Shown one piece after another: positions 42,602 to 62,800 of a stretch of DNA of 64,000 nt (position 1 is its first letter; each line of letters starts with the position of its first letter). The translations under genes and the position numbers were made by a program. The stretch is taken from IMG/VR virus record IMGVR_UViG_3300031088_000782, positions 96,001 to 160,000 of that record. One strand, written 5' to 3'. The stretch comes from a virus. Lineage: Duplodnaviria > Caudoviricetes. Under the pieces are notes generated by a model. That model was not told where the DNA came from and ran no database searches. It saw nothing but the letters and a program-made list of their open reading frames with translations.

Positions 42602-43284
42602 TTGAAAAAGTCTTTTGTTGTTATTGCTACCATTATCACAGCAGTCACTCTATCGCTTTCTGCTTGTGATTCTTCCTTTGAAAATTCTGATTCTCTCACG
42701 CAAAGCTCTGATGTTGAGGATTCAAAAAAGTTATTGAATCCTTGAATAAAGCCCACGATATTCGAGTCAAAAAAGAAGCGTTTTCTATTGGTGATTCTTG
42801 GGTTGTTTATGTAGATGATGAACAAATTGCTGAAATCAAGGGCGAAGTTTTCCCTGTTCTTGGTGATACTTATTCAATGTATTCGAATGCTGGAAATCTT
42901 GTTGGGGCCGAAACAGAAGATTTTCTTACTCTGACTCATGGTTCAAAAACTTATGACTATATGGGAGAACAGAGGGGGTATATTAAACAAAAAGCACTCA
43001 CCTTCGGATACGATTTTGATATTTATGAAAAATTCGAAAATGTAGGAAATGTTCGACAAAAGTTTTCTCTTGGACTTCAGGCTGATATCAAAGATTCTGA
43101 TGGAAAAGTCGAATATAATGTTGATAAAGAATTTTTCTCTTTCGGAAGTGATATAACAATTTCAAAAGTGAGCACTGAAAAAGAAACATCTGTTGATGCC
43201 ATTGATGCTGTTTGGGCTACAGTTATGATGAATGAGATTGATGAAGCACAAAATTCAGATAGCGGGAACAATAACAATAAATAA
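42602..43284 (+). CDS. lipoprotein with LURP-one/tubby-like domain, split by a -1 frameshift
   Basis: ORF1 42602-42745 has lipobox LSAC; in-frame A-AAA-AAG at 42724-42730; the -1 frame continues into ORF 42742-43284 (IKGEVF..GDTY, IKQK.LTFG.DF). Confidence 0.7.
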
Positions 43285-43289
43285 CTTCT

Positions 43290-43334
43290 TCAAAGAGGGC
43301 AAGAGTATTTTCGTATATTTCTTGCCCTCTTTGA
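43290..43334 (+). terminator. terminator hairpin
   Basis: 15-bp tcaaagagggcaaga / tcttgccctctttga. Confidence 0.7.
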
Positions 43335-43438
43335 GCTTCATGGTTATTTTTAAATACACAAAAAATAACGATAAATCCTTACTTATTGATATTAGTATTA
43401 GAATATTTTGCTATAAAAAGAGTAAGGATAAACAAAGA

Positions 43439-45223
43439 ATGCTCTATACCTTAGATCTGCCGTGGGGAGTTAAACACCCTAATGTACAATACTGGAAAGA
43501 CCAAAAAATCCATGTTTATAAAGGATCCATTCTTCCTGCTGAACTACGTCCTTATGCCAGTGAAGATTTTTCCTATTCAAGATGGCGTGAAGATGAACTT
43601 AATGGAATGGTGATGCCGCCTGAAAAAAGCGGAACTAAATTTACTCCAAAACCACATCAGGAAGAAGCTGCTAAAAAGATTTATAAAGCCTACAATACCG
43701 GGCAAAGAGGACTTTTACTGGCAGACAAGACTGGAACTGGAAAAACATTGTCAGCGCTTGCCGGTGTTTCCGCAATGGCAAAACATGATGGTTTCGGAGC
43801 TAAGAACAAGGGTAAACTACTCGTTGTATGCCCTAAAGGTGTCATTCCGCAATGGCGACAGACTTTACATAATTATCCTGTCTCAACAGCTCTACTGAGA
43901 GTTATGATCATCAATTATCAACAATTAAACAAACTTCTCGAAGCTCCTGCTTCTGCACGAGTAGCGAAAAAACGACACACAAAGAATAAACAAACATCAG
44001 CTAAAGGAAAACCAACAATTGATTGGAATTATGTCATATTTGACGAAGCTCACTCGTTAAAAAATTTCCCTAAATCAACAACATCATTAGCTGCAACTAA
44101 TATTGCTAAACTTGAAAAAAAATACCGTAAAGGAATAGAACCTTTCACAATTTTCTCAACAGCAACACCAGGAGCATCACCATTGAATTTTGCTTGCATG
44201 GCAGGAATTGTTGCTCCTTTACTGTCTAATAAGGTCAGTGCAAAAGATGTTACGCCTTCAACTTGGGGAGAATTCCTCGCCCAAGAAGGATTCGCTATAT
44301 CAAAAACCAAAGCAGGGTATACTTGGGCAACAGTTCCTTGGTTCGGAAAAAACTCAGACGATCCCCGCGAAAAAAGAAAATATGATGTAGCAGTTGCAAA
44401 AGCAAAAGCGATCCAAAGAAAAGACGCACAACGAATAGGTAAAGCCTTAACAAAACCAGGTGCACCTTTCATTATGAGATCACCTAAAGATTTAGCTGGA
44501 TGGCCGGAACAGCAAGTTATACCTATGCCTATTCAGTTAACAACAAAACAAATACCCATTTATGAAGAAGCTTGGACAAGATTCAGAAACTTCCTTCGTT
44601 TGACTCCAGCTAAAAGTGATCCAAAAGGGGCATTAGTAGAAACATTGAGATATCGTCAAAAAGCTTCCTTACTGAAAGTTGACTCAATGGTTGACAACGT
44701 TGTGGAAATGGTTGAAGCAGGAAATCAAGTATATATTTCTGTTGAATTTATGGAAACAATCGACAGATACAAAGAATTACTCAACAAAAAGAAAATACTT
44801 GTTGCAGAAATGAGCGGAAGAAATGTTTCTGAAAGAGAACAAGAAAGAATTAAATTTCAAAAAGGTGAAGTTGATGTAGTTATTTGTACTGTTGTAGCTG
44901 GAATCTCTCTACATGCTGAAGAAATATTGCCTGGCGGAAATAAAGCAACTTCAACTAACAGAATAACAGTGTTGCATGATGTTCGACAAAACAATTTGGA
45001 TTCTGCACAAGCCCTCGGTAGGGCACATCGAGATGGAAAGAACAGTATTTCCTACATTCCTTTCATCGAAAAAACTGTTGAGGAAAATATTGTTCAAAGT
45101 TTTACTAACAAAACAGCTAATATGCAATCTATGACAGGATCTTCTATTGATGAGTCAGAATTAATGGAAAGACAATTTAGAGAAGCATCAGCGAAAAGCA
45201 CTCCCCCTAACAGATTCAGCTAA
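43439..45223 (+). CDS. SNF2/SF2 helicase
   Basis: LADKTGTGKT, IFDEAH, STATPG, QALGRAHRDG; likely start ATG 43439 (MLYTL). Confidence 0.85.
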   Translation: MLYTLDLPWGVKHPNVQYWKDQKIHVYKGSILPAELRPYASEDFSYSRWREDELNGMVMPPEKSGTKFTPKPHQEEAAKKIYKAYNTGQRGLLLADKTGTGKTLSALAGVSAMAKHDGFGAKNKGKLLVVCPKGVIPQWRQTLHNYPVSTALLRVMIINYQQLNKLLEAPASARVAKKRHTKNKQTSAKGKPTIDWNYVIFDEAHSLKNFPKSTTSLAATNIAKLEKKYRKGIEPFTIFSTATPGASPLNFACMAGIVAPLLSNKVSAKDVTPSTWGEFLAQEGFAISKTKAGYTWATVPWFGKNSDDPREKRKYDVAVAKAKAIQRKDAQRIGKALTKPGAPFIMRSPKDLAGWPEQQVIPMPIQLTTKQIPIYEEAWTRFRNFLRLTPAKSDPKGALVETLRYRQKASLLKVDSMVDNVVEMVEAGNQVYISVEFMETIDRYKELLNKKKILVAEMSGRNVSEREQERIKFQKGEVDVVICTVVAGISLHAEEILPGGNKATSTNRITVLHDVRQNNLDSAQALGRAHRDGKNSISYIPFIEKTVEENIVQSFTNKTANMQSMTGSSIDESELMERQFREASAKSTPPNRFS

Positions 45224-45307
45224 TTGTTTTCATTTGATTTGATAATTGGGTAAAATTGTTATAAGCAAAATCTATAAATAAGATTTTAAAGGGAGGGTGA
45301 ATTGATA

Positions 45308-47437
45308 ATGAGAAAAAGAGTCCCAACAAAAGAACAATCTTTAGGAAATAAAATGACTCCTAAAATGTTCAATGAATGGGATTCCTCAAAAAATACAAAA
45401 TCTCCTTTTGAAATTTTTGCCGGTTCTCTTGATAAAACATATTGGATATGTTCTTATTGTGAAAATGAATGGGGAACTCCAGCAAGATCGATAAAAAATG
45501 GATCTGGATGCCCTATATGTTCTAAATACAAAAAAGGGGATATTACTAAAACCCATCCTGAACTTATGCCAGAATGGAATTCTGAAAATGGAAATCCAAG
45601 ACAGTATGGAAGCGGAAGTATGAAAATTGTAAAATGGGACTGTGTTGTGTGTTTAAATACATGGGAAGCAACCATTCCATACAAAACTCGTGGTGCCAAA
45701 TGCCCTTATTGTGAAAACAATAAAGCAATTAAAGGGTTTAATGACTTACAAACTACTCATCCTGATCTTTTAAAAGAATGGGATTATGATAAAAATATTA
45801 TCGATCCAAGTTCTCTAACTTTTAAAAACGTAACGAAAGTTTGGTGGAAGTGTGAAAAAGGGCACAATTGGGAAGCAACAATTAATCAAAGAATAATAAA
45901 AAAAACCAACTGTTCTTTTTGTAGCAATAGAAAAGTTTTGGAAGGTTTTAATGATTTAAAAAGTCAGTACCCTTTTTTGGAAAAAGAATGGGATTACAAA
46001 AAGAACAAAAATTTATTACCTTCAGAAATAGTTTTTGGATCTCATATAAAAGTTTGGTGGAAATGTAGCAAAGACCATAGTTGGAAAGCAACAATAAGCC
46101 ATAGATCTCTTGATAATTCAGGATGTCCTTATTGTTCAAAGCTGAGAACAGCAATTGGTGAAAATGATATAAAAACCATTAATCCAAACTATTTAACAGA
46201 ATGGGATTATGAAAAAAATAATATATTGCCATCAAGTGTAACTTTAAATTCGAGTAAAAAAATTTGGTGGAAGTGCAAAAAAGGACACTCTTGGCAAACA
46301 GCTGTATCAGAAAGAACAAGAGGCTATTCTTGCCCCTTTTGTAAGAATCAAAAAATACTAAAAGGATTTAATGATTTAAAAACATTGCAACCAAATCTTC
46401 TTAAAGAATGGGATTATGAAAAAAATAATGTTTTTCCTGATTGTGTTGGTCAAGGGGCGAAACAAAAAGCGCATTGGATTTGTAGTAAAAATCATGAATG
46501 GGAATCATCTATTTATCATAGAGTCTTTAATAAATCGGGCTGTCCAAATTGTTATCATTTTAACAGTACTTCAAAAAGAGAAAAAGAATTACTAAAATTT
46601 ATTCAAGAAAAACTAACTAAAAACAAAATAGTTATCTTCCCAAATGATAGAACTTTAATTCATCCTTATGAGTTGGATATTTATATTCCTGAAAAGAATA
46701 TTGCTATTGAGTTCAATGGGGTTTACTGGCATAGCGAAAAAGCCGGTAAGGATAATAGCTATCATTATAATAAATGGAAGCTATGTAAAGAAAAAGGAGT
46801 TCAACTCATCACTATTTGGGAAGACGATTGGATTAATAAACAAGACGTTATCAAGTCAATGTTAAGCCATAAATTAAACTCTTCTCAAAATGACAAAGTT
46901 TATGCCAGAAAAACAGAAATTTCAGAAATTGATTATATTACTGCAAGAAACTTTTTAGACAAAAACCATATTCAAGGATCCATGTCAGGGTCAAAATATA
47001 TTTCATTGAAACACGAAAATGAAATAGTTGCTGTATCGGTATGGAAAAAGAAAGATCCATTCACTGTATACTTAGAAAGGTATGCTACTTCAAAAATTGT
47101 TGTTGGCGGAATGGGAAAATTAATTTCTTATGTTCAAAACAATACATATGTAAATCAAAATATAGTCACTTTCGCATCCCATGAAGTTAGCAATGGAAAA
47201 CTTTATGAAGATTTAGGTTTTATTAAAGACAAAGAAATACCTCCAGATTATGCATATGTTGTCAACAGTGCAAGGAAACACAAGTTTGGATACAGAAAGT
47301 CTAAATTTGAGAAAGATCCTAATTTATTATTTGATAAGAATTTAACCGAAAAAGAATTGGCTGAATTAAATGGATTATATCGAACATGGGATTGCGGGAA
47401 AACTCGATATATCCTTCACCCTAACAGATTTAGTTAA
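45308..47437 (+). CDS. zinc-ribbon-repeat endonuclease (6 repeats)
   Basis: Same architecture as 27416 and 29180; ELDIYIP..AIEFNGVYWH; ERYAT. Confidence 0.8.
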   Translation: MRKRVPTKEQSLGNKMTPKMFNEWDSSKNTKSPFEIFAGSLDKTYWICSYCENEWGTPARSIKNGSGCPICSKYKKGDITKTHPELMPEWNSENGNPRQYGSGSMKIVKWDCVVCLNTWEATIPYKTRGAKCPYCENNKAIKGFNDLQTTHPDLLKEWDYDKNIIDPSSLTFKNVTKVWWKCEKGHNWEATINQRIIKKTNCSFCSNRKVLEGFNDLKSQYPFLEKEWDYKKNKNLLPSEIVFGSHIKVWWKCSKDHSWKATISHRSLDNSGCPYCSKLRTAIGENDIKTINPNYLTEWDYEKNNILPSSVTLNSSKKIWWKCKKGHSWQTAVSERTRGYSCPFCKNQKILKGFNDLKTLQPNLLKEWDYEKNNVFPDCVGQGAKQKAHWICSKNHEWESSIYHRVFNKSGCPNCYHFNSTSKREKELLKFIQEKLTKNKIVIFPNDRTLIHPYELDIYIPEKNIAIEFNGVYWHSEKAGKDNSYHYNKWKLCKEKGVQLITIWEDDWINKQDVIKSMLSHKLNSSQNDKVYARKTEISEIDYITARNFLDKNHIQGSMSGSKYISLKHENEIVAVSVWKKKDPFTVYLERYATSKIVVGGMGKLISYVQNNTYVNQNIVTFASHEVSNGKLYEDLGFIKDKEIPPDYAYVVNSARKHKFGYRKSKFEKDPNLLFDKNLTEKELAELNGLYRTWDCGKTRYILHPNRFS

Positions 47438-47570
47438 AAATTATGTTAAAAAATGTGATTTTCGCAACATTTAAGCAATGAAGCGATAAAAACGGTTGAA
47501 AACATACCTAAACCTCTGATAATATTAATGTAAAGATAAAAATCATTAATAATCAGGGGTTTAGTGTGTA

Positions 47571-47996
47571 ATGACTGAAATAACAGCAACTAAAGAAAAT
47601 ATTTTAGAAGAAAATTCAAGTAAGATTTTTGACAACATCATGAGTATTATCAAAGATGTAAGCAAAGCAACTCGATCTTCTTATGTCAAAGAAAAAATTG
47701 TTGAACAAGAAAAATACATTTACGAAGCAAAAGTAGATAATGCTTTACATAGATTTATTCAAATTGATGAACTTTTGAAACATGCGAAACAGCCAAAATT
47801 TTATCATTCATCAGAAAAGAAACAGAAGATTGAAGAAAATTTAGCCTTTTGGGAAATTAAAAGAGAAGAAAGTATTCAGAATTTCAAGAAAATCGCTCTA
47901 TCCATTCCTGACAATATGAATAGAGATGAGATCAGCAGACTTGTTTCACTGTATTTTGAAAAGTTTGAAATTATTGCTGAAACCGAGATTATTTAA
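47571..47996 (+). CDS. hypothetical helical protein
   Basis: 141-aa ORF; its RBS lies in a 13-bp hairpin arm. Confidence 0.6.
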   Translation: MTEITATKENILEENSSKIFDNIMSIIKDVSKATRSSYVKEKIVEQEKYIYEAKVDNALHRFIQIDELLKHAKQPKFYHSSEKKQKIEENLAFWEIKREESIQNFKKIALSIPDNMNRDEISRLVSLYFEKFEIIAETEII

Positions 47997-48792: not shown

Positions 48793-49133
48793 TGAAAACG
48801 TAACAACGACAAATCAAAGCAATTTGGTTTTGTAAGGTTTAAAAATGAATAACAGGTTGGTGCACGAGCCAAGGAAGAAAAAGTGATGACGCAATCGGAC
48901 GTTACTCTAGAAAAGAAAATCCGTGATTGACACTGTTGAAAGTGTGAAAACTTTCTGAACATTGTTGAAGTAAGGCCGGGAGGCAAAATTTCAATGATTA
49001 GGATGTGGATCGCCGCTCATGCGGACAAAAATGATTTTGGTTAATCATTCGTTCATAGTATAAATAAGTAACGCTATGAAATTGACGAATGATTAAATCT
49101 TCGTCAATGTTGCTTATTTCAGCATTGATATAT

Positions 49134-49206
49134 TCCCCTGTAGCTCAATTGGCAGAGCATTCGGCTGTTAACCGGAGGGTTCTTGGTTCAAGTCCAAGTG
49201 GGGGAG
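49134..49206 (+). tRNA. trnN: tRNA-Asn(GTT)
   Basis: Cloverleaf; CT-GTT-AA; U1-A72, G73. Confidence 0.95.
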
Positions 49207-49403
49207 CGCGGCTGAAAAATCATTTGGCCTTTATTAAATATATGCGAAATAATTGAAGCACCACGCAATGAAACTGTTCAAAATATTCCTTTTCGCAGGT
49301 TTATGATTTTGTTTTGAATAAGTCTTGTAAGATAATGATTTCTATGATTCAAGGTGGAACAAAGATAAATAATCTTTGCTTGATAATATTAATCATTATA
49401 TTT

Positions 49404-49475
49404 GCCCCTCTAGCTCAGAGGCAGAGCAACGGTCTTTTAAACCGTGGGTCGAGATTTCGAAATTCTCGGGGGGCA
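49404..49475 (+). tRNA. trnK: tRNA-Lys(TTT)
   Basis: Cloverleaf; CT-TTT-AA; U53.U61 mismatch. Confidence 0.9.
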
Positions 49476-49480
49476 CAATT

Positions 49481-49692
49481 GGGACTGCACACACTGTCGA
49501 TGTGAAGCGGTCCTGAGTTAAACCACTGATCTGCCATGTGTAGAATTCAGTATCTTTCTCCGTTGTATCGCAGTATGACGGAGAATGCTTATCGCTATCT
49601 GACAGTAGCGGTAATAGAAAACGAGTTATTGATGCACGTCTGTCAGCGTCATGGATAATCATTGCGACAATGACCGGCATGGATAGTCCGGT
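49481..49692 (+). ncRNA. unknown structured RNA
   Basis: Five or more hairpins and a 7-bp loop pseudoknot ctgacag/ctgtcag. Confidence 0.55.
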
Positions 49693-49709
49693 TAAAAACG
49701 TTTTCATAT

Positions 49710-49782
49710 TCCCTTATAGCTCAGTTGGCAGAGCGTTTGACTGTTAATCAAAATGTCCCTGGTTCGAGTCCAGGTGGGGGAG
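49710..49782 (+). tRNA. trnN: tRNA-Asn(GTT)
   Basis: Cloverleaf; CT-GTT-AA. Confidence 0.95.
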
Positions 49783-49863
49783 CACAGTGACAAAAATTGC
49801 TGTAACAATGCTCTAGAAGCGTTACGTAAATAATTGATAAAATATTCATCAATTATTTAATGT

Positions 49864-49937
49864 AGCTGGGTGGGGAAGTTAGGTATCCCGTCGTGTTCAT
49901 AACTCGAAGATCGTTGGTTCAAATCCAACCCTAGCCA
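49864..49937 (+). tRNA. trnM: tRNA-Met(CAT), initiator-like
   Basis: TT-CAT-AA; unpaired A1/C72; U.U in anticodon stem. Confidence 0.8.
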
Positions 49938-49967
49938 CTATTTTTAACAAATATTGTTGAAAAATAT

Positions 49968-50042
49968 CCAGATATAGGAAAGTTTGGTCATTCCGCCTAG
50001 TTAGGGGCTAGGAGATCGCAGGTTCGAATCCTGCTATCTGGA
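49968..50042 (+). tRNA. trnP: tRNA-Pro(AGG)
   Basis: CCAGATA/TATCTGG; TT-AGG-GG; A73. Confidence 0.92.
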
Positions 50043-50179
50043 CAAATGTTATAGAAGTATCATAAGCCATGAGAAAATATAACATTGATAAAAGTTGAAC
50101 ACCCTCGTAAAAATGTTTGCGAATATATTCTAGGCTAGTTTATATTGGGCTGAACGCGCATTTTCTTTTATCGCCTTAA

Positions 50180-50252
50180 TCCTCTATGGTGGAATGGTTT
50201 AACACTCTTGGCTCTTAACCTTGAGATCTAGGTTCGAATCCTAGTGGGGGAA
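50180..50252 (+). tRNA. atypical tRNA, CTT anticodon in a Gln-like body
   Basis: CT-CTT-AA; two U.U in anticodon stem; T arm as in the Gln tRNAs. Confidence 0.55.
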
Positions 50253-50254
50253 CT

Positions 50255-50327
50255 GTGGTCGTAGCTCAATTGGTAGAGCGTCTGCTTGTGGCGCAGATGG
50301 TTGGGGGTTCAAGTCCCCTCGATCACC
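50255..50327 (+). tRNA. trnH: tRNA-His(GTG), no encoded G-1
   Basis: TT-GTG-GC; C73; T at -1. Confidence 0.9.
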
Positions 50328-50346
50328 CTATGGGACGGCAATCCCT

Positions 50347-50485
50347 AGTGTTTTATCATCGGGTCTGTTTTGCCGAACAGAATAAGATGTAGCCAACACT
50401 TTAAACATGGCTCCCTAATGGTCTAGTTTGGTTAGGGCACATCCGCGTGGAGGGTGGGGCGTAGGTTCAAATCCTACTTAGGGAA
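50347..50485 (+). ncRNA. repeat unit 1: conserved stem motif + TCCCT..AGGGA tRNA-like element
   Basis: Motif 50347-50407; tRNA-like 50412-50485 with loop GC-GTG-GA and A73. Confidence 0.55.
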
Positions 50486-50521
50486 CGGTTTCGAAAGGAA
50501 CTACTGAAATGCGCAATTTCG

Positions 50522-50689
50522 AGTGGATAGTATCATTGGGTGCTGTTTATCTTAAATAGTTAAGCTGACTATGCAGGTGAGACAGTATAAGATGTAGTTA
50601 CCACTATAAACAAAACTCCCTGATAAGTCTCAAGAGGTAGAGCTGGCAATACGCGTCCGGTTGTGGGTTCAAGTCCCACTCATAGGGAA
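50522..50689 (+). ncRNA. repeat unit 2: conserved stem motif + degenerate tRNA-like element
   Basis: Motif 50522-50612; tRNA-like 50617-50689. Confidence 0.55.
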
Positions 50690-50707
50690 CAATTCTGAAA
50701 AGAATAT

Positions 50708-50780
<73 letters not shown>

Positions 50781-50803
50781 CTTGATTACAAAAGTAATCA
50801 TAT

Positions 50804-50874
50804 GCGGATATGGTGTAGTGGTAGCACAAGAGCTTCCAACCCTCTTGGTCAGAGTTCGATTCTTTGTGTCCGTG
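50804..50874 (+). tRNA. atypical Gly-like tRNA with a 9-nt anticodon loop
   Basis: AAGAG-CTTCCAACC-CTCTT; G73. Confidence 0.55.
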
Positions 50875-50967
50875 CTGAATATGCAAAAATATTCATAAAT
50901 TTTTAACAAATATAACCTTTGGGAAGTAATTAAGGTTCGATTCTGTCTGTTGTATTTGTTAAATTAT

Positions 50968-51040
50968 GGGGGTATGGCGCAATTGGTAGCGCATCTGCTT
51001 TGCAAGCAGAGGGTTACGGGTTCGAGTCCCGTTATCTCCA
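50968..51040 (+). tRNA. trnA: tRNA-Ala(TGC)
   Basis: G3.U70, A73; TT-TGC-AA. Confidence 0.95.
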
Positions 51041-51041
51041 C

Positions 51042-51116
51042 AGCTGGGTAGAGAAGTTCGGTTATCTCGTCAGGTTCATATCCTGAAGATCGTGGGTTCA
51101 AATCCCACCCTAGCCA
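51042..51116 (+). tRNA. trnM: tRNA-Met(CAT), initiator-like
   Basis: A1/C72 mismatch, A11-U24; TT-CAT-AT. Confidence 0.88.
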
Positions 51117-51214: not shown

Positions 51215-51287
51215 GGCGGCAGTGGCAGACTGGTAATGCGCTTGACTGTGGCTCAAGTATATGCGGGTTCAATTCCCGTCTGTCGCC
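51215..51287 (+). tRNA. trnH: tRNA-His(GTG) with G-1
   Basis: CT-GTG-GC; G-1:C73. Confidence 0.93.
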
Positions 51288-51326
51288 CAAATTTTTATTA
51301 ATATTATAAAATATGTTAATAAATTT

Positions 51327-51532: not shown

Positions 51533-51642
51533 CTTTATACAAATAATAATTGTATAATTTTCACAATTTATTTGACAAAATAATTGACTAATGCTATATT
51601 TAAGTTAATAAATAAATTTGGTAATTAAATAGTGGAAAATAT

Positions 51643-53736: not shown

Positions 53737-53909
53737 GGCTAAATGGTGTACAACATTTAGTTCAAACTATCAAAATAGACAGATCATCTATAAATGGTAG
53801 AATAAGTTTTGACATTCCAGGAGTCAGGCGGTTGCAGGTTCGAGTCCTGTCAGTTAGCACACAAGTTAATTGTAACTCAATAGGTTAGAGTTCCTGATGA
53901 ATGGTTTGT
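53737..53909 (+). ncRNA. permuted tRNA-like RNA P2 (YrlA-like architecture)
   Basis: 5' GGCTAAA hairpin; core 53824-53897 T arm, loop-closed acceptor, D arm; TCAGG/CCTGA stem. Confidence 0.78.
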
Positions 53910-56964: not shown

Positions 56965-57038
56965 TACTGTGTAGTTTAATGGCAAAACACTAGGCTCTTA
57001 AAGCTTAGCATATAAGGTTCGAATCCTAATCACAGTTG
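56965..57038 (+). tRNA. degenerate tRNA with a 9-nt loop CTCTTAAAG
   Basis: Good D arm; CTAGG/CTTAG stem; mismatched T stem. Confidence 0.45.
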
Positions 57039-59450: not shown

Positions 59451-59519
59451 TTGACAAGTTTGAAAAAATTTGTTAAGATTGTCAAAGTAACACAGCGGAT
59501 TGAAAAATTAATAGTGGAA
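59451..59519 (+). promoter_or_regulatory. sigma-A promoter + boxA-like leader
   Basis: TTGACA-17-TAAGAT; 31-nt motif 30/31 identical to 53374. Confidence 0.75.
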
Positions 59520-59526
59520 CATATAT

Positions 59527-62645: not shown

Positions 62646-62793
62646 TTGACAATAATTATTAATTATGCTAAGATTAACTTGTTAAATCAAATTGAGGACT
62701 TATCAAGAAGATAACGAGATTATAGATTTGACAAGCGTTAAAAAATAGTTTATAATTAATAATATAAAGCGGTTTGGAAACTTAATAGTGGAA
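62646..62793 (+). promoter_or_regulatory. tandem P1/P2 promoters with a conserved spacer motif and boxA-like leader
   Basis: TTGACA-17-TAAGAT; TTGAGGACTT motif; TTGACA-17-TATAAT; GCGGTTTGGAAACTTAATAGTGGAA. Confidence 0.7.
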
Positions 62794-62800
62794 AATATAT

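Follow-up and report, generated by a model that had tools for sequence, protein, structure and literature searches.

What else besides tRNAs may be carried in a phage array of transfer RNA (tRNA) genes is the question raised by the locus described here. Large phage tRNA arrays are usually read as a supply of tRNAs for codon usage or against host defence. The window analysed is the whole stretch of 64,000 nt, bases 96001-160000 of the 309,534-bp IMG/VR virus record IMGVR_UViG_3300031088_000782 (Duplodnaviria; Caudoviricetes), which is rated 100% complete. A first-pass annotation, made from the sequence alone, had described at 50347-50689 of this window a tandem two-part unit in which a hairpin stands ahead of a non-canonical tRNA-like element. 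Such a unit is real, and it is duplicated at this position. Two tandem units span 50330-50689, each made up of a small stem-loop (P0), a three-tier hairpin, an 11-nt leader, and a tRNA-like element. The interpretation favoured here, with a probability of about 0.45, is that each unit is a lineage-specific structured small RNA that is released from a tRNA precursor, the tRNA-like element providing the handle for ribonuclease (RNase) P, RNase Z, and CCA addition.

All of the features are on the + strand. In unit 1, P0 (50330..50346) has 5 bp (A-U plus GGGA/UCCC), a bulged U50331, and the loop CGGCAA, according to both the pair table and RNAalifold. In each unit, 0-1 nt lies between P0 and the main hairpin. 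Hairpin 1 (50347..50400; minimum free energy -15.9 kcal/mol, z=-1.9 against shuffled sequences, as for all fold z-scores here) contains only canonical pairs. Its three tiers are the outer stem P1 (50347-52/50395-400), P2 (50354-55 and 50357-60 / 50386-91) with a bulged U50356, and, beyond a GG/AA internal loop of tandem G.A (G50361, G50362 / A50384, A50385), P3 (50363-70/50375-83) with a bulged A50381 and the apical loop UGCC. The single-stranded leader 1, TTAAACATGGC (50401..50411), has a predicted RNase P site after C50411, and tRNA-like 1 follows at 50412..50485. Unit 2 is preceded by a single-stranded 5′ linker of 20 nt (50486..50505), which varies in relatives. Its P0 (50506..50520) has 5 bp, GAAAU/AUUUC, and the loop GCGCA. 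Hairpin 2 (50522..50605; -28.7 kcal/mol, z=-3.4) repeats the arrangement with P1 (50522-26/50601-05), P2 (50531-32 and 50534-37 / 50591-96) with a bulged U50533, the G.A loop (G50538, G50539 / A50589, A50590), and P3 (50540-48/50580-88), which here leads into a variable 31-nt apical extension (50549-79). Leader 2, ATAAACAAAAC (50606..50616), has its predicted RNase P site after C50616, and tRNA-like 2 occupies 50617..50689.

The core strings of the hairpins are TATCATCGGGT at 50354, TATCATTGGGT at 50531, and ATAAGATGTAG at 50382 and 50587. TATCAT(C/T)GGGT and ATAAGATGTAG each occur exactly twice and in the same order, and the combined motif has exactly two copies in the 309-kb genome, where a reversed control has no matches and a fuzzy search with up to four mismatches found no third copy. 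A covariance model built from the hairpin 1 orthologues alone, with the proposed structure imposed, recovers hairpin 2 at 21.9 bits (E=2.8e-4, filters off), and at 35.5 bits (E=1.6e-7, default) when P0 is included. This model aligns the helices of hairpin 2 exactly as drawn, while the rest of the array scores no higher than 9 bits. Pairing is present in 98% of cells, compared with 35-48% when the partners are slid, and RNAalifold independently recovers P0, P1, and P2. The hairpin and the tRNA-like element have been duplicated together and conserved together, with a fixed spacing of 11 nt in both copies. Elsewhere the two paralogues have diverged; they are near-random in the D arm, the anticodon arm, and the apical region, whereas the core 11-mers are identical. 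The leaders share the form (T/A)TAAACA-NNN-C, unlike the AU-rich leaders ending in ATAT that precede nearly all other tRNAs of the array. TAAACA ends 4 nt ahead of the tRNA-like element, and the spacing, the TCCCT..AGGGA termini, and the perfect T arm given in the first-pass annotation are all present in both copies.

The locus is also present in public sequencing runs, in contigs of 84-97% identity from a food-fermentation run (X3), a faecal run (X4), and a tick metatranscriptome (X15, an RNA-seq library); the changes reported for these three are those among the matches listed. A near-identical copy is carried by 'Organism A' of run X2. Further food, surface, bovine, and plant metagenomes appear to hold diverged relatives; the small word shares of runs X5-X14 and X16-X22 are uninformative on habitat. 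Two assembly contigs, L076 (window 49151-51116) and L077 (window 49016-50551), were reached via a spurious 55-aa frame. A third contig, L073, was reached via a flanking 141-aa gene and ends at the start of the array. Another spurious open reading frame (ORF), at 50604-50909, gave no matches when it was used as a search handle.

Comparison with L076 and L077 supports selection on the units. In these contigs, the ordinary spacers between tRNAs are 21-79% identical to the window, with many insertions and deletions (indels), and the true tRNAs are 97-100% identical. The spacer of unit 1 is 96% identical, with changes to hairpin 1 in loops only. The P0-plus-core of unit 2 is 98-100% identical, its P0 being unchanged in both contigs and the hairpin 2 core being 100% identical in L076, compared with 87% in the apical extension and 43% in the spacer after tRNA-like 2 (L076). 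Relatives differ in P0 of unit 1 at the bulged U50331, which is substituted or deleted, and at loop position G50337, which is A. Every change to hairpin 2 in L076, X3, X4, and X15 is in the apical extension, and all 11 of the listed changes to the unit 2 spacer in X3, X4, and X15 are in the 5′ linker or the apical extension. In the linker itself, L077 has three changes, and four are listed for X3/X4. Within the block, 176 of 361 positions are modelled as hairpin core or tRNA stems. Only one of 17 differences in L076 is at a modelled position (P=2e-4), this being a T added to a T run beside an unpaired U. For L077 it is two of ten (P=0.014), one of which turns a U.G pair into U-A. The conserved unpaired residues to which the first-pass annotation drew attention are thus borne out; in related phages, purifying selection acts on unpaired and non-Watson-Crick residues, as would fit a core that binds protein. 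In leader 2 of L076, A50610 is replaced by T (TAATCA), therefore TAAACA is not strictly required.

The first-pass annotation had also described a covarying outer stem. Changes on both sides of a helix do separate the paralogues, with three pairs in P0, where the stems of the two units differ in this way, and one pair in P1, U50351-A50396 versus G50526-C50601, to which the covariation of the outer stem is limited. Among the relatives, there is a compensatory change in P3 of hairpin 1, where U50368-A50377 becomes C-G in X4, and another in the acceptor stem of tRNA-like 1 at 3:70, where C50414-G50482 becomes U-A in X3 and X4. The covariation is therefore present in P0 (three pairs), P1 (one), and P3 (one, in a single relative), but it had been overstated, since most of P2 and P3 is invariant in sequence. 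An alternative pairing of the TAAACA leader with UGUUUA of P3 was considered and dropped, as the leader is TAATCA in L076 with the P3 strand unchanged, and the C-G swap in X4 supports P3.

Both tRNA-like elements start with TCCCT and end with AGGGA-A, and both have 7-bp acceptor stems and standard T arms. The first is called as tRNA-His(GTG) by ARAGORN and folds as a full cloverleaf, which scores 45.6 bits against the Rfam tRNA model (RF00005; gathering score 29). In this it resembles canonical tRNA, with a U1-A72 pair, G37, A73 (A50485), and no CCA. Unlike canonical tRNA, it has C33 (C50446) in place of U33, in the anticodon loop G-C33-GTG-G-A, and neither the length nor the sequence of this loop is conserved. 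The loop of the window, GCGUGGA, is shared by L077. In L076, it is the 6-nt GCAGGA, from which GUG is lost, and there ARAGORN reports a 2-nt anticodon and Rfam 39.8 bits. In X4, C33 is deleted and there are indels in the stem. In bacteria, G-1 opposite C73 is the identity set of histidyl-tRNA synthetase; despite its GUG, tRNA-like 1 lacks this set, having C50411 at -1 and A50485 as the discriminator.

The second element departs further from the tRNA model. It is missed by ARAGORN and has no Rfam tRNA match at E<=10, only its T arm matching, at 12.6 bits, the model for transfer-messenger RNA (tmRNA). Its 7-bp acceptor stem has a 2-nt bulge in the 3′ strand, its T arm is perfect, and its discriminator is A50689. 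Between these, the D and anticodon arms are degenerate; the constrained fold has neither a D arm nor a variable loop, and a weak stem with a loop of 7-10 nt abuts the T arm. Changes in relatives concentrate at 50648-57, the equivalent of the anticodon arm, and the T arm is kept. Neither tRNA-like element has a close paralogue among the tRNAs of the array. In both elements, the T arm is invariant and the acceptor stem is maintained among relatives. The acceptor stem and T arm together make the minihelix that is recognised by RNase P, RNase Z, and CCA-adding enzymes. The anticodon drifts, and it is this acceptor/T-arm minihelix that is the selected part of the tRNA-like elements.

The array in which the units lie begins at 49.1 kb in the window, where ARAGORN identifies 57 genes, and remains untranslated for ~15 kb. 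Strong sigma-70-type promoters are present around the locus only at 48.6-48.8 kb and 51.57 kb, and no terminators were found between them; the stretch from 49.3 to 51.5 kb has neither a strong promoter nor a terminator. The units are therefore inside a polycistronic tRNA transcript, in which intact acceptor/T-arm minihelices flank the hairpins, as expected of an RNA punctuated by tRNAs. Upstream is tRNA-His(GTG) (50255..50327; ARAGORN; Rfam 67 bits), with T at position -1 and 100% identity to its counterparts in L076 and L077. The next canonical gene downstream in the same transcript is tRNA-Trp(CCA) (50708..50781; ARAGORN; Rfam 72.7 bits). None of the tRNAs of the array has an encoded CCA. 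A CCA-adding enzyme is encoded by the phage itself (PolyA_pol head domain, in a 484-aa frame, G000:C1:168410-168796), within the extended tRNA region at ~72.4 kb in window coordinates and so outside the window.

It is proposed that the units are co-transcribed with the phage tRNA genes and that the tRNA-processing machinery would excise from the polycistronic precursor an RNA consisting of P0 and the three-tier hairpin, ~83 nt from unit 1 and ~131 nt from unit 2. The 5′ end of each RNA would be set by 3′ maturation of the preceding tRNA or tRNA-like element, which for RNA 1 would be the 3′ processing of tRNA-His(GTG) at 50255..50327. The 3′ end would be set by the RNase P cut ahead of the following tRNA-like element. 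Under this model, the tRNA-like element would be retained chiefly as a handle for processing and CCA addition, through its acceptor and T arms, and not as a decoder, and the released RNA would be stable. The irregular invariant core of the hairpin (bulged U, CAUY/GAUG helix, tandem G.A, and closing G.U) is most likely a docking site for a protein of the phage or the host. The hairpin is a new RNA motif that on this reading would be used in a known way, and it forms an orphan family confined to one phage lineage. A bolder version, in which the hairpin is a new phage RNA effector whose core captures a host protein (e.g. a defence, RNA-decay, or transcription factor) and whose tRNA partner has been co-opted as a maturation and CCA-tagging cassette, is rather unlikely.

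Several observations weigh against release of a small RNA from the tRNA precursor. Covariation is thin in the main hairpin, where P2 and the base of P3 are invariant in all of the sequences compared and are therefore uninformative on pairing either way. The listed changes in P2 in X4, A50358>G and U50359>C, would produce a G.U pair and one C.A mismatch, the partner positions 50387/50388 not being among the rows listed. The block 50044-50689 as a whole is more conserved than its flanks, therefore part of the conservation could reflect recent recombination. Evidence of transcription from the RNA-seq library X15 is weak, consisting of a 165-nt contig over 50484-50648 at 3x depth; this contig runs across the predicted RNase P site, and carried-over DNA may be its source. 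No homologue was found outside this phage lineage.

A different role within the same transcript is possible, if doubtful. The units could be cis-acting elements of the tRNA operon, either an entry site for an endonuclease (host RNase III, of the T7 type in which an internal loop limits cleavage) or a put-type antiterminator that spares the untranslated 15-kb array from termination. The put RNAs of phage HK022, of ~70 nt, act in cis; a phage has two of them, similar to each other, and each is built from two irregular stem-loops (PMC9378689). Like putL and putR (PMC9378689), the units are present as two copies of two adjacent irregular stem-loops with bulges, P0 and the main hairpin, and their transcript is untranslated or early, although it is the layout alone that has been compared. 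The array is untranslated and has few promoters, and a conserved spacer with a weak promoter-like site, the sole candidate near the units when their layout was checked against put, lies ~200 nt upstream of them. For RNase III, the hairpin length of 20-30 bp is suitable, and the phage, without an RNase III gene of its own, would depend on the host enzyme. However, putL and putR are located just after promoters and bind the beta-prime zinc domain of enterobacterial RNA polymerase, whereas the units do not directly follow a strong promoter and their P0, of merely 5 bp, is far below put stem I. Nor does an antiterminator need two copies 175 nt apart, in tandem in one transcript, and a cis-acting role leaves unexplained why each copy has a tRNA-like partner. 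That partner might instead act jointly with the hairpin as one RNA, a tRNA mimic with a 5′ protein-binding handle, similar to the Y-RNA/YrlA modules, which would act as a decoy or sponge for a host factor directed at tRNAs, be it an anticodon nuclease, some other defence against tRNAs, or a synthetase. The joint duplication and conservation of the parts at a constant 11-nt spacing, the YrlA-like tRNA mimics ~3 kb downstream (Rfam YrlA, 31.4 bits, 53826-53899), and the unusual C33 and GUG anticodon of tRNA-like 1 are consistent with this. It is nevertheless unlikely, because RNase P normally cuts at an intact minihelix that follows a single-stranded leader, so the parts would be expected to separate. 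Anticodon nucleases usually attack the anticodon loop, which here is not conserved and in tRNA-like 2 has no arm to carry it. In addition, the histidine identity elements G-1 and C73 are absent, as is a Ro60/TROVE gene from the genome, and the YrlA model gives here only 22.6 bits against a threshold of 69, in a match at 50644-50762 that is an artefact of adjacency, straddling the 3′ half of tRNA-like 2 and the 5′ half of tRNA-Trp. The synthetase decoy suggested in the first-pass annotation is without support.

It is more improbable still that the units have no function, being a decaying, tandemly duplicated, redundant tRNA gene with its spacer hitch-hiking, conserved through recent duplication, gene conversion, or recombination between phages. 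The degeneration of tRNA-like 2, the loss of the anticodon of tRNA-like 1 in L076, the existence of a canonical tRNA-His elsewhere (at 51216), the uniformly good conservation of the surrounding block, and the failure to find homologues outside the lineage would all be expected from decay. Against this, the core 11-mers are exact in paralogues that are near-random elsewhere, the changes in relatives avoid the core (P=2e-4), there are compensatory pairs in P3 and the acceptor stem, and the differences between the copies in the P0 and P1 stems keep the pairing. Finally, the 5′-processing ribozyme suggested in the first-pass annotation, which would trim the 5′ side of the tRNA-like element by self-cleavage, can be given very little weight. 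A catalytic core could be read into the unpaired residues that are conserved in the irregular hairpin just ahead of the tRNA-like element, but the anatomy gives no hint of catalysis; the helices form one simple coaxial hairpin, with none of the junctions or pseudoknots needed by the known small ribozymes. The cmscan search of 50300-50720 found no Rfam ribozyme match at E<=10 (hammerhead, twister, twister-sister, pistol, hatchet, hepatitis delta virus-like, or hairpin). Furthermore, 5′ maturation is already supplied by RNase P, and the leader beside the supposed site is altered in L076.

Among known systems, the proposed release of a non-tRNA RNA from a tRNA cluster has a likely counterpart in phage T4, the tRNA cluster of which includes the small stable RNAs rnaC and rnaD ('species 1 and 2'), of unknown function and matured by the tRNA-processing enzymes. 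The likeness would be one of design, a structured non-tRNA RNA being co-transcribed with phage tRNAs in both cases; here, however, the hairpin is duplicated and has a tRNA-like partner, and the jumbo phage is unrelated. The use of a non-decoding tRNA shape as a signal for release by RNase P and RNase Z is likewise found in MALAT1-mascRNA, in the tRNA-miRNA units of murine gammaherpesvirus 68, and in mitochondrial tRNA punctuation. Those systems are eukaryotic, viral-nuclear, or organellar, whereas this is a phage tRNA operon, for which the release is inferred. YrlA/Y RNA (RF02553) shares with the units a tRNA-like module beside an irregular protein-binding stem and an occurrence in phage tRNA arrays. 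It differs in being one molecule, in which a circularly permuted tRNA-like domain is closed by the Ro60-binding stem; here, a self-contained hairpin lies 5′ of an unpermuted tRNA-like element. The YrlA match at 53826-53899 in the same array is sub-threshold (E=0.0017) and is in a genome without TROVE/Ro60, and the hairpins of the YrlA-like units at 53.7-54.15 kb have no sequence relation to those of the units described here. The TROVE family PF05731 has no match in the 309-kb genome, although control genomes were matched, and no genes for Thg1, RNase III, or Ro60/TROVE were found in it.

Two further likenesses of the hairpin were rejected. In a kink-turn, tandem sheared G.A/A.G pairs come after a bulge of 3 nt, and each strand contributes one G and one A. 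In hairpin 1, both Gs (G50361, G50362) are on the 5′ strand and both As (A50384, A50385) on the 3′ strand, and the bulge is a single U, six positions off. A possible resemblance of hairpin 1 to the repeat:anti-repeat duplex of type II CRISPR systems was set aside, as it is not seen in hairpin 2 and the most conserved part would correspond to the dispensable upper stem.

Searches for more distant relatives were negative. The hairpin matches none of 4227 Rfam families. A blastn search of GenBank phages left the unit unmatched, with generic tRNA similarity only, and no close phage relatives were found by protein. Relatives of the DUF4379 gene in the window were considered as kin of the phage and rejected, as these belong to unrelated viruses. 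The model R2 found nothing in 18 other large viral records and nothing further in the phage genome itself. An exact-pattern scan of IMG/VR for the two core strings at a gap of 8-38 nt gave no matches; at a gap of 30-60 nt there were three, all in coding sequence without tRNAs. The pattern of the 3′ half and that of the T arm and acceptor gave no matches, and one that let P2 covary gave a single match, attributable to chance. The core-string matches in JGI metagenomes (16) and GTDB genomes (18) are at about the number expected by chance, and a recurrent 45-nt class among them comes from a protein gene conserved in cyanobacteria, read on its reverse strand. One match, at 640-725 of the fungal-looking soil contig L040, is an intergenic hairpin with both core strings and a three-tier fold (z=-3.1). 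In simulations, comparable architecture arose in 0.7-1.4% of cases when the motif was planted in random sequence, because the core strings are self-complementary. One such fold among 34 matches is within chance, and L040 was rejected as a homologue. The further homologues called for in the first-pass annotation are thus represented by orthologues in related phages, and none of the searches gave a distant homologue.

Together with the YrlA-like mimics 3 kb away, the locus suggests that phage tRNA arrays also carry selected structured RNAs that are not tRNAs. It further suggests that decaying tRNA genes may be retained as processing handles, which would be a phage counterpart of the punctuation of mascRNA and TMER type. 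As an example of an orphan RNA under selection the locus is clean, and on the interpretation favoured here a tRNA gene has been put to new use in it as a processing cassette. Since the hairpin core is short, invariant, and easily mutated, a hunt for its partner is practical. If the RNA does bind a host factor, it would be a new class of phage RNA effector, and the tRNA arrays of jumbo phages would serve in addition as platforms from which RNAs that manipulate the host are expressed. If it does not, it is a well-documented orphan RNA family of one phage lineage.

Other features of the array and its surroundings were noted. The window is AT-rich (~35% G+C), essentially all of its genes are on the + strand, and it contains a jumbo-phage replication module with homing endonucleases interspersed. 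ARAGORN identifies 66 tRNAs and a tmRNA in the whole genome, the latter at G000:C1:178464-178814 with the tag ANANKNAYALAA. The spacer between tRNAs at 50044-50179 is 96% kept across three phage lineages, compared with 21-79% for other spacers; it contains a 9-bp hairpin (50045-50086) and a weak promoter-like TTGATA-17-TAAAAA, and could act as a promoter or encode a further functional RNA. A recurrent leader, (T)TAA(A/T)TAGTGGAA(A/C)ATAT, lies directly 5′ of the first tRNA after each strong promoter (51623-51642, 59507-59526, 62781-62800, and ~53390), and could be a shared transcript-start or leader signal.

Some of the individual tRNA genes are also unusual. The tRNA-Lys(CTT) call at 50180-50253 has A73 and a U1-A72 acceptor stem starting with TCCTCT, as do the tRNA-Asn genes of the array, and may be an Asn-derived tRNA with a changed anticodon. 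At 56966-57037, a tRNA with the anticodon TTA scores 31 bits in Rfam, just over the tRNA threshold, and is a possible ochre suppressor. There are three genes with a GTG anticodon, and G-1 opposite C73 is encoded only in that at 51216-51288. The tRNA-His at 50255, itself well formed but with T at -1 in a genome without Thg1, begins 1 nt past the preceding tRNA.

Differences in gene content are seen between the close lineages. The tRNA-Trp at L076 1774-1860 is 87 nt long, 13 nt more than its window counterpart at 50708-50781, and the second tRNA-Trp of the window (50804-50875) is apparently absent from L076. L073 (8083-10426, the counterpart of window 43232-47996) belongs to a relative at 92% identity and has the 141-aa ORF immediately after the SNF2 helicase gene. 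It lacks the gene for 711 aa with DUF4379 zinc-finger repeats that lies in the window at 45302-47437, which indicates a recent insertion or loss. An insertion of 242 nt, located between 49783 and 49864 in window coordinates, gives L076 (756-829) and L077 (930-1003) an additional tRNA-Val(AAC), and the anticodon of tRNA-Pro is TGG in relatives (L076 1024-1099) and AGG in the window. Tran­sfer RNAs with A34 have therefore been gained or lost between close lineages.

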